Source of the DNA: an uncultured Acidobacteriota bacterium | Lineage (GTDB): Bacteria > Acidobacteriota > Thermoanaerobaculia > Gp7-AA8 | Assembly (NCBI GenBank): GCA_963822445.1 | Contig: CAWGHO010000003.1 | Span: forward strand, 1,024,001-1,088,000 | DNA: 64,000 bases | Direction of reading: 5' to 3' | Shown here: piece after piece, positions 45,828 to 50,034 of the stretch | Numbering within the stretch: position 1 is the stretch's first letter | Layout of the letters: the number at the start of each line of letters is the position of its first letter | Made by a program: the position numbers and the translations under genes | The notes under the pieces: generated by a model | The model's database searches: none | Told to the model about the DNA's origin: nothing | Seen by the model: only the letters and a program-made list of their open reading frames with translations

Positions 45828-47006
45828 GTGCCACCTCGCTATCCAAAAGACGAAGAGCACACCTACAAAAGGCACAAGAAGGACCTCGAGAAACGCCTTC
45901 CTCCTGATCAGTTGAAAGAGCGGAAGCGCGCCGGAAAACTGCGCCGCGCCTTCCGCAAAGACGAAGGTGAGGTGCGCGAGCACCGCATCACCGAAGACAA
46001 CTGGGAGTCGCTGCTCGACAAGCATGGCCACAGCCCGAAGCGGCCGCTCTTGTCGACGCTGGTCGAAGAGCTTCGCGTCGGTGAGCCGGTCTTCACCGAT
46101 GAAGACCGCGCCGGCAGCGCCATCGTCATCAGCGTGGCCAGCGGACGATGCCGGGTGTTCCTCGAAGGTCAAGAACTTGACTGCCTGATTCCGAAGGAAC
46201 TGGCCCTGCTCCAGAAAAGCTCGCTGACGGTCGGCGACCGCGTGCGGGTCTTCGACGATGGCGGCATCTGGAAGCTGCAGAACGTGCTGCCGCGGCACAG
46301 CGTGCTCGCGCGTCCCGATCCGCTGCACAAGCACATGCAGCGGCTCATCGCGGCCAACGTCGACGTCGTCATTCACGTCGTTTCCGTGAAAGCGCCGCCG
46401 CTTCGCCCGCGACTGATCGATCGCTTTCTGATCGCCATTCAGCGCGGCGGCGCGCATCCCGTCATCTGCGTCAACAAGGTCGACCTGCTCAGCAGAGAGG
46501 AACGCGACGCCGAAATCATCAAGCTCGCCCCCTACCTCGACCTCGGCGTCCCGGTCATCGGCTGTTCGTCGAAAACGGGCGAGGGACTCGAGCAACTGCG
46601 CGCCGAGGTGGAAGGGAAGATGGCCGCGCTGGTCGGCCACAGCGGCGTCGGCAAGTCGTCGATCCTCAACGCGCTCGATACGACGTTGCAGCTCGCCACG
46701 CGAACCTTGCACAAGCGGGGGACGGGGAGACACACGACCACGGCGTCGACGCTCTACGACTTCGGCGGCGGGACGTACCTGATCGATACGCCCGGCATCC
46801 GCGAGTTCGGTCTCTGGGATCTCGATCGCGACGCGCTGCGCGATTACTTCCCGGAGTTCGAAGAGCCGATGGAGCTCTGCCGCTTCACCGACTGCACGCA
46901 CATCCACGAGCCCGACTGCGAGGTGAAGGATCGTGTCGAGAGCGGGGATCTGAGCGCGGCGCGGTACGAGACGTACGTGCGGCTCTGGCAGGATCTGGAC
47001 TCGTAG
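45828..47006 (+). CDS. rsgA: Ribosome small subunit-dependent GTPase A
   Basis: NKVD, GHSGVGKSS, GRHTTT, DTPG, CRFTDCTHIHEPDC zinc finger. Confidence 0.95.
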   Translation: MPPRYPKDEEHTYKRHKKDLEKRLPPDQLKERKRAGKLRRAFRKDEGEVREHRITEDNWESLLDKHGHSPKRPLLSTLVEELRVGEPVFTDEDRAGSAIVISVASGRCRVFLEGQELDCLIPKELALLQKSSLTVGDRVRVFDDGGIWKLQNVLPRHSVLARPDPLHKHMQRLIAANVDVVIHVVSVKAPPLRPRLIDRFLIAIQRGGAHPVICVNKVDLLSREERDAEIIKLAPYLDLGVPVIGCSSKTGEGLEQLRAEVEGKMAALVGHSGVGKSSILNALDTTLQLATRTLHKRGTGRHTTTASTLYDFGGGTYLIDTPGIREFGLWDLDRDALRDYFPEFEEPMELCRFTDCTHIHEPDCEVKDRVESGDLSAARYETYVRLWQDLDS

Positions 47007-47140
47007 ACGCCCGCTTGTGCAGTTTTCTGCACGACGTTATCTGCGCCAGGGGGTGGCATTCGTGCAGGATCCGTCACACCACCAGATAGAGGGCGCCCTC
47101 CCAACATTCGATCCGGCCGCAGGCCGGACTAGGAGGGCTT

Positions 47141-47329
47141 ATGCGTGGTCTGAGCAGGAGAGTGGGACGCGTTCTGGTCGTGGTGTCGGTGGCCGCTTTG
47201 CTCGCGGTGCCGGCGGAGGCAAGGCCACCGCGGGGTGACGACGGGTGGGTACCGAAGATCGTCGTGAAGATGCTCAAGAAACTGGGCCTCGGCACGCACG
47301 GCGACATGATCACCATCCCGCGACCGTAA
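47141..47329 (+). CDS. Small secreted peptide precursor (62 aa)
   Basis: AGGAGG RBS; signal peptide ending AEA; amphipathic VPKIVVKMLKKLGL; C-terminus DMITIPRP; stop abuts the convergent TPR gene stop. Confidence 0.75.
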   Translation: MRGLSRRVGRVLVVVSVAALLAVPAEARPPRGDDGWVPKIVVKMLKKLGLGTHGDMITIPRP

Positions 47330-48529
47330 TCACGGAAGGACGAACTCTCGCTCCGGATACTTCCGGAGCGAGACGATGTACTCGCGGACGCCGCCCACCA
47401 TCGCCACGGATGCCGTCCGCGCGGCAATCGCCTCCGAGAGGTAGCCGAGCGCGGTGATGGCGCGGGAGTTCAGTCCGGCGTTCGTGAACTCGAGGACGAC
47501 CTGCCGCGCCAGCGATTCCGCTTCGTGCGGTTCGCCGAGGGCCAGGCGGGCGTTGACGATTTCCAGCGCGCAGAGACCGGCTTCCTCGACCAAGCCATGC
47601 TCGAGGAACGTCCTGCGAACGGTCTTGAGGTGCGACACGGCGCGACGATACTCGCCGCGCCGCGAGAACAGAACGCCGCGAGCTCCCTCTGACCTCGCAG
47701 CCTGCACCGGCCAATCGAGCTCGCGGGCAAGCGCGACCGCTCGGTCGAGGTGCGACTCGGCGGCGGAGAAGTCGCTCAACTCAACGCTGATGTAGCCGAT
47801 GTCGTGATGCAGATGCGCCTCGGCCCGCCGATCGTCGAGCTCCTGCGCAACCTCCAGGAGCGCCGTGTACATCTCGCGGGCCTCGCGAAAGCGCTTCATC
47901 CGATGCAGCAGGCATCCTTCGGCGATCCCGCAACGAAGCGATCGCCGCGCGTCGCCATGCGCGCGGAACACGGCGCGGCATTCGGCGAGCAACTGCATCG
48001 ATTCTTCGAAGCGGCCCATCTCCTGTAGCGTCGTCGCGCGGACGAACCGGATGATGGCCAGGTCGTGGGCAAGCGTTCCGAACGAATTGAGGAGCGCGTC
48101 GGCTCGATCGAGCGCTTCCAGTGCTTCGTCGTGACGCGCGAGGTAGCACAGCGCCTGACCGCGATCCTTCCACGCATGAGCTCGAGCCTGCGCGACGACG
48201 ATCGGCGGATAAGTCATTGCCGGAATCGCGGCGGCGATGCTCGTGGCCAGCTCGGCGATGACCAGTGCTTCGCGCGGCTCGCGATCGAGTCGCGCTTCCA
48301 CTTCGCGGGCCAGAGCTTCGAGCGCGCCGACGGTATGGAGCGAGGCGCGCGACGCCAATGACGGCCATTCCTCGCGCGGCGTGTCGTTGAGTACGCGCGC
48401 GATGACGGTCGCGAAAGAATCCCGTTCCTCCTGAAGCCGCCTCGCCATCGTGGCGAACTCGCGCACGCGCACGGGATCGGGCAATCGTCGCGATCGTGAA
48501 AAGGGAACGAGCTTGCTCTCATCGGTCAC
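47330..48529 (-). CDS. Tetratricopeptide-repeat protein (399 aa)
   Basis: Serial TPR-like helices (AWKDRGQALCYLARHDEALEALDRA; LHHDIGYISVELSDFSAAESHLDRA); GTGA overlap with the ECF sigma stop. Confidence 0.88.
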   Translation of the reverse strand: MTDESKLVPFSRSRRLPDPVRVREFATMARRLQEERDSFATVIARVLNDTPREEWPSLASRASLHTVGALEALAREVEARLDREPREALVIAELATSIAAAIPAMTYPPIVVAQARAHAWKDRGQALCYLARHDEALEALDRADALLNSFGTLAHDLAIIRFVRATTLQEMGRFEESMQLLAECRAVFRAHGDARRSLRCGIAEGCLLHRMKRFREAREMYTALLEVAQELDDRRAEAHLHHDIGYISVELSDFSAAESHLDRAVALARELDWPVQAARSEGARGVLFSRRGEYRRAVSHLKTVRRTFLEHGLVEEAGLCALEIVNARLALGEPHEAESLARQVVLEFTNAGLNSRAITALGYLSEAIAARTASVAMVGGVREYIVSLRKYPEREFVLP

Positions 48530-49047
48530 TGCGCGCGTCCCTTCTCGCCGTAAAGCCGTTCGGCGCGGCGGAGACATTTCGTAATCAGCTTCTGCGCGTA
48601 CTTCGAGGTGACGCCGAGGGACTGGGCGATCTCGGGAACCGTGCAACCTTCGAAATAGCGCATGCGCAGCACCTCCTGACATCGCGGCGTCAGACACTCC
48701 AGCGCTTCGCGCGCGGCGAGCTGGTTGGGAAGACTGTCGAGGATGCGCAGCGATGCGGGATCGACTCGTTCGAGCTCGCTGTAATCGTCGGCGTCGATGA
48801 TCCGGCCATTGAGCCGCCAGTAATGCCGGCTGGCGTGACAGATCGCGCCGATGAGCCAGGAGCGGAGCTCGATGACGTCGTTGCTCTTGCGGAGATACGT
48901 GATCAGGACGTCGTGGACCAGCGTCTCCGCTTCCGAATCGGGCACCTGGAACTTGTAGGCCGCGATCTGGACGAGGAGGTCGAAGTACTGCTCGTAGATC
49001 GCCTCGAATTGCTGATCGTCGAGGCGCGGGCTCGTCTGAGGAGTCAT
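48526..49047 (-). CDS. ECF-family RNA polymerase sigma factor
   Basis: FEAIYEQY, EAETLVHDVL, RSWLIG, LTPRCQEVLRMRYFEGCTVPEIAQSLG; 173 aa from ATG 49047. Confidence 0.9.
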   Translation of the reverse strand: MTPQTSPRLDDQQFEAIYEQYFDLLVQIAAYKFQVPDSEAETLVHDVLITYLRKSNDVIELRSWLIGAICHASRHYWRLNGRIIDADDYSELERVDPASLRILDSLPNQLAAREALECLTPRCQEVLRMRYFEGCTVPEIAQSLGVTSKYAQKLITKCLRRAERLYGEKGRAQ

Positions 49048-49203
49048 GGTGACAATCGCTGGATTAATGGTCAACGTACCACAGTAAGGAGGTAGGTAAA
49101 CGTGGATTTCCGCACACTCCTTAATGAGGACACGCGAGTGACGCGCATAGGAGTCGGAAGGGGAGAAAACAGGAACGTTTACGCGCCATCGAAGGTCGTG
49201 CGC

Positions 49204-49440
49204 ATGCCTCGTGGCGACAATTCGATGGTCGCGCAATTCATCCGCTATCACGTCCTGATCCGTGTTTACGACGGTGACGCGGACGCATGGCTGACGCGAC
49301 TAAAGGAGCACGGCGGCGATGAAGGCGATGTGCGTTTCGTGCGCTGGATTCGTTCGCGCGTGCGCAAGGACCCGGCGTTGATGGGCGCGATCAGGAGAAT
49401 GGTGGAGGCGACGCCGTTCTGGAAGGTTGCGGAGGCATGA
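49204..49440 (+). CDS. Hypothetical protein (78 aa)
   Basis: Divergent from the ECF sigma; helical; start could be 49102, 49204 or 49225. Confidence 0.6.
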   Translation: MPRGDNSMVAQFIRYHVLIRVYDGDADAWLTRLKEHGGDEGDVRFVRWIRSRVRKDPALMGAIRRMVEATPFWKVAEA

Positions 49441-49455
49441 GATATTGCGCGGCTC

Positions 49456-50034
49456 ATGGAGTTCACCCTCAACCCCCGCGAGATCGGCTTCGTCCGCCTC
49501 GACTTCGCTGAGCTCTTCGGCAACAGCAATCCGGTGATTCTCGAGATCGGCTCGGGCAAGGGCCGCTTTCTCATCAGCACGGCCACTGAACGCCCGGACC
49601 TGAATCTGCTCGGGATCGAGAAATCGCTGCACTATCACCGCGTCATTCGCGATCGCGTCCTCAAGCGCAATCTGCAGAACATCCGGCTCATCAATCACGA
49701 CGCCTTTCTCGTGCTGCGGGACATGATCCCTGACGCCTCACTGGCCGAGATTCACGTCTACTTTCCCGACCCCTGGCCGCGCAAGAAGGAACAGAAGCGG
49801 CGGATCATCCGCTCGGAGGTGCTCGAGCAGTTCCGGCGCACGCTCGTCGACGGCGGATGGGGGATCTACGTGACCGATCACCGCGAGTACTACGAAGTCG
49901 CCGCGCCGCTGATCGAGCAGCATTTCCGCGCCGAGCGGCGCATCCCCGGCCCCGAAGACGTGCCCCGTACGAATTACGAGGCGAAGTACCGGGCCGAAGG
50001 GCGGGAGATTTATGAGGTCAGGTTTTGGAAGTGA
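49456..50034 (+). CDS. trmB: tRNA (guanine-N7)-methyltransferase
   Basis: LEIGSGKG, YFPDPWPRKK, TDHREY, TNYE. Confidence 0.95.
   Translation: MEFTLNPREIGFVRLDFAELFGNSNPVILEIGSGKGRFLISTATERPDLNLLGIEKSLHYHRVIRDRVLKRNLQNIRLINHDAFLVLRDMIPDASLAEIHVYFPDPWPRKKEQKRRIIRSEVLEQFRRTLVDGGWGIYVTDHREYYEVAAPLIEQHFRAERRIPGPEDVPRTNYEAKYRAEGREIYEVRFWK

Follow-up and report, generated by a model that had tools for sequence, protein, structure and literature searches.

Peptide receptors of the RRNPP family are treated as a property of Firmicutes and their mobile elements in passages of two earlier accounts (PMC10075063, PMC9765709), and a passage of the latter describes Rap systems that carry several pro-peptide genes (PMC9765709). 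Control of extracytoplasmic function (ECF) sigma factors is usually attributed, in passages of the ECF reclassification, to membrane anti-sigma factors, proteolysis or fused domains; tetratricopeptide repeats (TPR) are mentioned there solely for a C-terminal extension of ECF42 sigmas and for a FecR-like protein of ECF267, and no ECF group with a zinc-motif/TPR anti-sigma was found in those passages (PMC7826278). A study on SigF/NrsF of Azospira suillum describes an ECF sigma/anti-sigma pair with a small periplasmic peptide, MrpX, in its regulon (PMC4436054). Here, we analyzed a locus of an uncultured soil Acidobacteriota bacterium within the window, which is the whole 64,000-nucleotide stretch of contig CAWGHO010000003.1 presented above. 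An ECF-type sigma gene, a gene for an all-TPR protein and a small gene for a predicted exported pre-peptide lie there side by side. Comparison with related loci showed that the TPR gene and the peptide gene are the invariant core of a module, and that the transcription factor encoded upstream is exchangeable. Judged from sequence, this recurrent TPR/peptide pairing beside a sigma factor may be an undescribed peptide-controlled gene switch.

The TPR gene and the peptide gene as the core of a module

The three genes are tightly packed (Table 1). The TAA stop of the peptide gene (47327-47329) abuts the stop of the convergent TPR gene (47330-47332) with a 0-bp gap, and the GTG start of the TPR gene overlaps the TGA stop of the sigma gene in the tetranucleotide GTGA (48526-48529); this start/stop overlap, or a near-abutment, was retained among orthologues. 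The protein of 173 amino acids (aa) matched the NCBIfam model TIGR02937 for ECF sigma factors (61.5 bits vs a cut-off of 42.9, residues 13-162) and Pfam Sigma70_r4_2 (E = 1.4e-10), with the Pfam region-2 model absent from the listed matches. It has regions 2 and 4 only and falls within the ~170-200 aa of ECF (group 4) sigma factors, and its orthologues in the fetched loci are 70-81% identical over the matched stretches. The Pfam matches of the 399-aa protein were to TPR families alone (TPR_12, TPR_1, TPR_2). The 62-aa product, MRGLSRRVGRVLVVVSVAALLAVPAEARPPRGDDGWVPKIVVKMLKKLGLGTHGDMITIPRP, matched no family in Pfam or NCBIfam. A preliminary description had proposed this trio of an ECF sigma, a GTGA-coupled 399-aa TPR protein without evident transmembrane segment or helix-turn-helix (HTH) domain, and a stop-abutting 62-aa open reading frame (ORF) with a strong ribosome-binding site, a signal sequence ending in AEA, a basic amphipathic helix and a C-terminal DMITIPRP. 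The ORF list, sequence and translations agree with the trio, Pfam, hydropathy and an AlphaFold model with the character of the TPR protein, and the peptide features were likewise found, the signal by inspection.

To collect relatives, we used the peptide as a query over 61 related genomes and then a profile of 27 peptides over 301 genomes of the class Thermoanaerobaculia; loci (numbered L) were fetched around peptide matches, not TPR matches, and annotated with profiles. Of the genomes sampled from the genus, 16 of 17 contained the peptide family, as did 53 of 72 from the taxonomic family; a single genome held up to 9 copies. Matches beyond the taxonomic family were weak and mostly partial (the signal-peptide part), and the named relatives were metagenome-assembled genomes of 'Thermoanaerobaculia bacterium'. 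Results showed that 86 of 100 peptide genes (E < 1e-4, identical DNA copies removed) had a TPR-family gene no more than 400 bp away, and another 6, in tandem peptide arrays, lay 400-1000 bp from one. The remaining 8 had no TPR-family gene within 1 kb: four (two in L026, and those in L101 and L128) are less than 500 bp from a contig end, L061 and one L045 copy adjoin TPR fragments, and L065 and L103 are true orphans (2/100). The 86 pairs were convergent in 69 cases (median 19 bp between profile envelopes) and co-directional in 17 (median 116 bp). Many of the 100 cases are syntenic orthologues of the window locus, hence not independent; the counts and the peptide alignment A1 include two unpublished genomes (G002, locus L013; G025, locus L022), on which no conclusion depends. 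Among 40 paralogous loci in other contexts and genera, 38 had an adjacent TPR gene, with L101 cut by a contig end and L103 having none. The host genome (G000; 6.0 Mb, 3 contigs, 94.7% complete) encodes six full-length relatives of the TPR protein (the family of the window copy), and each of its 3 peptide-profile matches at E <= 3e-8 adjoins one of these six genes; the peptide-TPR arrangement is far beyond chance. At L045 (2441-5032), three peptide genes are interleaved with TPR gene fragments, which look like tandem duplicates of the module that have decayed.

Over the paralogous loci, three kinds of gene lie immediately upstream of the TPR gene, often overlapping its start. The first encodes a complete ECF sigma. 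The second encodes a protein of 74-90 aa whose match is confined to sigma region 2 (jackhmmer E 1e-13 to 1e-22; of 4 tested, 1 reached 21.4 bits with Pfam Sigma70_r2, short of the cut-off). The third encodes an XRE-type HTH protein, 120-260 aa long, with Pfam HTH_3 above the cut-off in all 5 tested (L098, L123, L117, L115 and L112). The peptide gene stays while the partner is swapped, which we regard as the strongest argument for a tie of the peptide to the TPR protein and not to a particular sigma. The swap likewise hints that TPR proteins of the family act as general antagonists or co-regulators of whichever factor precedes them. Short sigma-region-2-like partners, of one subfamily, were seen in L093, L094, L096, L102 and L104, with further ones by profile in L095, L105-L107, L109, L110 and L125, and HTH partners were recognized by eye also in L111, L116, L122, L127 and L131. 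The conserved 'half sigma' without region 4 could be a decoy or an adaptor.

The conservation of the small ORF marks it as a genuine gene family that lacks annotation. Close pairs of peptide genes had ratios of nonsynonymous to synonymous substitution rates (dN/dS) of 0.30-0.36, entropy at codon positions 1, 2 and 3 was 1.19, 0.96 and 1.41 bits (3 > 1 > 2), and the start codon, Shine-Dalgarno sequence and frame were conserved among orthologues. Independent gene callers predict ORFs of the family. The profile matched 107 proteins in a set of 5.8 billion and 260 clusters at 50% identity in a set of 1.84 billion; nearly all matches were of 55-70 aa, every named one was a 'hypothetical protein' and none had a Pfam domain. 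We inspected the N-terminus of the window peptide with the help of a hydropathy and hydrophobic-moment script: it has a basic n-region, a 12-residue hydrophobic core (Kyte-Doolittle 3.08) and AEA before R28. The predicted signal peptide thus spans residues 1-27 (AEA/R), leaving a predicted mature part of ~35 aa with a net charge of +4, an amphipathic helix at residues 38-49 (hydrophobic moment 0.69) and the C-terminus GDMITIPRP. Members of the family share this layout: an M-R/K-rich start, a hydrophobic core and an A/S-x-A site, then a short acidic or basic stretch, a basic amphipathic helix (IVKxIKK-like) and a C-terminal P-x-P segment. The type-A orthologues end in the consensus G-D-G-L-x-(D/I/V)-P-x-P. 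Of 85 TPR-peptide pairs, 72 have the P-x-P end, mostly with K or R between the prolines, and the four to eight residues before the prolines vary between paralogues. Tandem peptide genes in 2-3 copies were present in some loci, and the L113 peptide (1112-1297) contains the C-terminal motif twice (..NGDMMSPPTP ... SGDAMTPPTP). A regular-expression screen of the host genome for peptides of the DPxG type gave none. Twin-arginine export was considered for the RRxF of some peptides and rejected in favor of a Sec-type signal, the second arginine not being conserved.

The TPR protein contains no Pfam HTH domain, no signal peptide and no clear transmembrane segment; its highest 19-residue hydropathy (1.71, borderline) falls in the Ala-rich residues 88-106, which the AlphaFold model places within the helical superhelix. 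This model, built on a 32-row alignment, is a continuous all-helical superhelix with a predicted local distance difference test score (pLDDT) of 93.6 and a predicted template modelling score (pTM) of 0.86. Against the PDB, Foldseek ranked TPR domains of LGN/Pins highest (TM-score ~0.6), which hold long extended peptides in their groove, and next the Rap proteins, free or with Phr peptides, ComA or Spo0F (4gyo, 3ulq, 4i9c, 3q15, 4i1a; E 1e-6 to 1e-5, TM-score 0.45-0.56). We read this likeness of the predicted model as generic TPR similarity, a peptide-binding kind of fold and not membership of the LGN/Pins or Rap families. A complex prediction for the TPR protein (A2) and the mature peptide (A1, residues 28-62), made without controls, scored 0.02 vs a mark of 0.32 and counts neither way. 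These results confirm three further expectations of the preliminary description: that the 62-aa ORF is a true coding gene, that the TPR fold is akin to peptide-binding superhelices including Rap proteins, and that a small signal-peptide ORF with a conserved ...xPxP end lies beside TPR homologues, so that its refuting case of TPR homologues lacking such a neighbor does not hold.

In paralogues of ~450 aa (L002, L004 and others) the sequence opens with an HxxxCxxC motif, which is visible in L004, L098, L117, L123, L126, L127 and L131; in L002 it was matched by Pfam zf-HC2 (23.2 bits vs a cut-off of 22.2). Some TPR proteins with an HTH partner (L098, L123) keep the motif, and this 'anti-sigma' zinc motif may not be sigma-specific in the module family. 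The window type has a conserved KLVPFxRxRRxPDPARV at its N-terminus instead, apparently disordered in the model (pLDDT < 50 for residues 1-13), and the remainder of the protein aligns across window-type and zf-HC2-type members. We regard the TPR protein as a putative, anti-sigma-like antagonist of the sigma factor. A search for fused forms at 789-2250 aa gave generic TPR proteins only, and all 120 listed proteins of 388-411 aa were plain TPR proteins; for fusions of 412-788 aa the search covered the first 120 ranks.

Regulatory DNA and neighboring genes

The peptide gene is preceded by a palindrome, a promoter-like motif and a structured leader (Table 1). In an alignment of 23 orthologous upstream regions the palindrome consensus TGtGCA...cTGCACa was conserved, and a GGT(A/G)G...CGTCAC(A/T)C motif, a palindrome and the Shine-Dalgarno sequence also precede the peptide genes of co-directional, HTH-type and short-sigma modules. 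In the host genome, 13 sites have the form GGTAGGG(A)-N12-13-CGTCAC(T/A)C with CTA after it, and unrelated genes downstream include a metK-like gene and one for a 102-aa relative of the small gene next to sigma. Because it precedes unrelated genes, GGTAGGG...CGTCAC appears to be a non-sigma-70 promoter class of the lineage and not a private mark of the module. The strict form of the window peptide motif has 2 other genomic sites, both within coding regions. A sigma-54 reading of TGGCAT was rejected by eye, the GG-GC spacing being unfit.

Table 1 Features of the locus, in positions of the window (+, forward strand; -, reverse strand; N, any base)
Feature	Positions	Strand	Remarks
Palindrome TGTGCA-N6-TGCAC, candidate operator	47016-47033	+	Upstream of the promoter-like motif
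Promoter-like motif GGTGGCAT-N12-CGTCACACC	47052-47080	+	Not sigma-70-like; conserved across orthologues
5' leader of the peptide gene	47089-47138	+	Palindrome, hairpin, Shine-Dalgarno; putative transcript start
Palindrome GAGGGCGCCCTC	47089-47100	+	Conserved in orthologues
Hairpin CCGGCC-GCA-GGCCGG	47113-47127	+	Conserved in orthologues
Shine-Dalgarno GGAGGGC	47132-47138	+	Conserved in orthologues
Pre-peptide gene, 62 aa	47141-47329	+	ATG start, preceded by AGGAGGGCT at 47131-47139
TPR gene, 399 aa	47330-48529	-	GTG start; predicted soluble
ECF-type sigma gene, 173 aa	48526-49047	-	TIGR02937, Sigma70_r4_2
Sigma-70-like promoter candidate TTTACC-N16-TGG-TACGTT (extended -10)	49073-49100	-	Conserved blocks, by eye
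Block GGAGGTAGGTAAAC-ATG/GTG-GATTTCCGCACACTCC, then hairpin	49090-49125	+	Conserved; between sigma gene and divergent gene
Small gene divergent from sigma gene	49204-49440	+	MPRGDNSMVAQFIRYHVLIRVYDGD...

Within the leader, GCCCTCC (47095-47101) complements the Shine-Dalgarno GGAGGGC exactly. Both the RNAalifold consensus and the minimum-energy fold of the window sequence (-25.5 kcal/mol) pair the two, with paired bases that are invariant and hence give no covariation support. GCCCTCC also lies inside the palindrome GAGGGCGCCCTC, which could self-fold instead. This arrangement looks like a translational on/off element and is kept in orthologues and paralogous modules.

On the sigma side, a CGTGGTAACGTGAC block, a candidate extended -10 of sigma-70 type, is found ahead of the sigma genes in paralogous operons too. 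No promoter motif common to the sigma operon and the peptide gene was evident in a comparison of conserved blocks. In L004 and its orthologues L097, L114 and L124 the sigma start (ATGGGTCT..., MGLKS) lies 3-4 bases after a TGGTAACGTG block, an arrangement that points to an extended -10 promoter and a leaderless mRNA. A scan for consensus promoters and terminators returned no sites at the locus, and the 0-bp gap leaves no room for a terminator between the peptide and TPR genes. With neither gap nor terminator, the convergent transcripts probably overlap, which would allow antisense interference of the kind known from prgQ/prgX of pCF10. Rfam gave nothing relevant over 46900-49500. No RNA run was listed among the public sequencing runs, and the DNA runs share <=0.10 of sampled words.

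The locus order of rsgA, peptide, TPR, sigma, small divergent gene, trmB, ruvC and MFS gene is syntenic across the genus. Within one family of Thermoanaerobaculia the modules form a multi-copy family, of which the window locus is the chromosomally fixed copy. The small divergent gene was conserved in 23 of 27 locus rows (3 of them duplicates). Its N-terminus is longer in many species, and the longer 112-aa ORF had no Pfam match; a paralogue lies near 722,500 of contig C3 of the host genome, behind a GGTAGGG...CGTCAC motif. The block at 49090-49125 consists of a Shine-Dalgarno sequence, a start and MDFRTL, in a frame that closes after ~13 codons in L073, and may be a leader mini-ORF or an RNA element.

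Candidate mechanisms

We tentatively favor a switch like that of Rap-Phr, as a possible though not yet probable account, in which the TPR protein antagonizes its own transcription factor and the peptide switches the TPR protein. The TPR protein would sequester the factor encoded upstream, here the ECF sigma, in an anti-sigma role. The pre-peptide would be exported by Sec, its signal peptide cleaved, and the mature peptide would return to the cytoplasm, where the TPR superhelix would bind its conserved C-terminal segment, possibly together with the amphipathic helix. Binding would flip the TPR-factor complex, in one direction or the other, so that peptide abundance would switch the factor; a processed peptide that binds the TPR groove and switches the sigma was also the central proposal of the preliminary description. 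Six genes for OppA-type binding proteins in the host genome are permissive only. Several results weigh against this account. No transporter, importer, protease or peptidase family recurs beside the modules outside orthologous synteny groups, and no SbmA/BacA homologue was found in the host genome at its stated completeness. The host is presumably diderm, as is general for Acidobacteriota, and an outer membrane would add a barrier to an extracellular loop. The entire ~35-aa mature peptide is conserved, amphipathic helix included, and not just a short C-terminal piece; for Opp-type import such a length is large, and the mature RRNPP pheromones, by contrast, are short. Its C-terminal G, D, P and P are near-invariant in orthologues and similar in paralogues, which limits signal specificity where several modules share one cell. 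A mutual-information scan of the last 9 peptide residues against the TPR columns (72 pairs, effective number 67, without a null model) gave no interpretable pattern, the top pairs being scattered over the whole protein. The window TPR protein and its orthologues lack zf-HC2, starting ~50 residues later than the paralogues, which leaves gene order and coupling to carry the anti-sigma role. Just 3 of the 6 host TPR paralogues have a recognizable peptide neighbor, and no Pfam or NCBIfam model of the Rap, NprR or PlcR families matched. Finally, the peptide gene has a conserved promoter-like motif of its own, and the peptide may be a regulated output in addition to, or instead of, a signal. A mature part conserved over its whole length, no linked importer or protease and a presumably diderm envelope together favor a rival over a classical extracellular loop.

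One such rival makes the peptide the output: a small periplasmic or envelope-active effector beside its regulators, with the TPR protein sensing something else. We consider this doubtful. SigF/NrsF-MrpX offers a precedent for an ECF sigma/anti-sigma pair that controls a small periplasmic peptide (PMC4436054), and the strongly conserved non-sigma-70-like motif of the peptide gene, with a leader able to mask the ribosome-binding site, suits an output gene. So do the basic (net +4), amphipathic character of the mature part, like that of membrane-active peptides, its conservation throughout, and tandem copies that fit dosage. But the peptide remains with the TPR gene even where the partner is an HTH protein or the short sigma-like protein, which could hardly direct transcription by itself, and the promoter motif class, found also before unrelated genes (metK-like), makes no tie to the neighboring sigma. 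Orphan peptide genes are nearly absent, which is unexpected for a free-standing effector. Alternatively, and in our view unlikely, the TPR protein captures the C-terminus of the pre-peptide before export; Sec export would free it to bind sigma, a block in export would release sigma, and the module would report secretion capacity, not cell density. Passage across the outer membrane and re-import of a 35-aa peptide would then be unneeded, in keeping with the absence of a linked importer, and conservation of the full mature region is also accommodated. Such titration resembles the TPR chaperones of type III secretion, which bind a secreted substrate and an activator of transcription by turns (IpgC-MxiE, SicA-InvF), as well as the export of FlgM. 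Yet Sec substrates are normally exported fast, a dedicated sensor at up to 9 copies per genome is hard to rationalize, and the variation before P-x-P among paralogues points to specific pairing, not to a general secretion gauge. That the small ORF has no functional link at all, being a passenger or an annotation artefact kept by synteny, is very improbable. The locus is indeed syntenic in the genus (trmB, ruvC, MFS gene), so that ~25 orthologous cases are not independent, but the pairing also turns up in numerous other genomic contexts, in either orientation and in other genera, and purifying selection, the conserved start and Shine-Dalgarno sequence and the independent gene predictions all speak for a gene in its own right.

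If the peptide does switch the TPR protein, as in the Rap-Phr-like account, peptide-receptor signaling would extend to a diderm, poorly studied soil phylum and sigma-factor control would gain a new type of input. The many natural paralogous pairs (260 peptide clusters at 50% identity, up to 9 copies per genome) lend themselves to tests of specificity. At its widest, the module would be the first family of cytoplasmic-receptor peptide signaling outside Firmicutes, its TPR protein a peptide-switched antagonist of any upstream factor and its dozens of paralogous pairs per lineage a private peptide language of soil Acidobacteriota; we find this conceivable and somewhat doubtful. Should the peptide be an effector, the locus still reveals a family of exported mini-proteins that is widely conserved, lacks annotation and has dedicated regulators.

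Comparison with described systems

Full-text literature searches, which covered few subscription journals and no supplements, found no account of a soluble anti-sigma that combines a zinc motif with TPR and is paired with an exported peptide, and none of an RRNPP-type system in Acidobacteriota. By Pfam and NCBIfam, the window TPR protein has no sequence or profile homology to Rap, NprR, PlcR, Rgg, PrgX or AimR. It does share with RRNPP receptors a TPR-built cytoplasmic architecture (Pfam, AlphaFold, no signal or clear transmembrane segment) and, as in RRNPP(A) receptors, a small predicted exported pro-peptide gene alongside. It lacks a fused effector domain, either HTH or Rap N-terminal bundle, and the factor is encoded by a separate gene.

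Rap-Phr of Bacillus is the nearest of these systems in layout: a cytoplasmic all-TPR protein without a DNA-binding domain, a small Sec-exported pro-peptide gene beside it and multiple paralogous cassettes per genome, in some Rap systems with tandem pro-peptide genes as in certain loci here. Rap antagonizes a transcription regulator, and the window TPR protein would have the same role. Unlike Rap-Phr, the module shows no sequence-family match and a moderate fold match (TM-score 0.45-0.56), encodes its target factor (ECF sigma, short sigma-like or HTH protein) within the cassette, belongs to a diderm phylum, and has a conserved mature part of ~35 aa, not 5-6 aa. HTH-fused RRNPP systems (PlcR-PapR, NprR-NprX, Rgg-SHP, PrgX, AimR-AimP) likewise combine a TPR protein with an adjacent pro-peptide, and the XRE-type HTH, the class fused to the TPR domain in these receptors, is the partner in some paralogues here. 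In the module, however, the HTH protein has a gene of its own, which often shares 4 nt with the TPR start, and the window copy has a sigma factor in its place. We know of no RRNPP receptor with a zinc anti-sigma motif, which many TPR paralogues here carry.

With the class I zinc anti-sigma (ZAS) factors RsrA, ChrR and RslA, the window protein shares solubility and a gene directly after, and coupled to, that of an ECF sigma (the GTGA overlap, kept in orthologues). The HxxxCxxC motif is shared in paralogues only: the window protein and its orthologues lack the N-terminal HxxxCxxC (zf-HC2) domain of ZAS factors, and a large C-terminal TPR superhelix sets the window protein apart from them. SigF/NrsF-MrpX has the same three components, an ECF sigma, an anti-sigma (putative here) and a small exported peptide. 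NrsF is not a TPR protein, and MrpX, an output of its sigma, serves as a methionine-rich sacrificial scavenger, unlike the window peptide, which is not Met-rich. By membership the window copy fits neither RRNPP nor ZAS, yet it may work like both.

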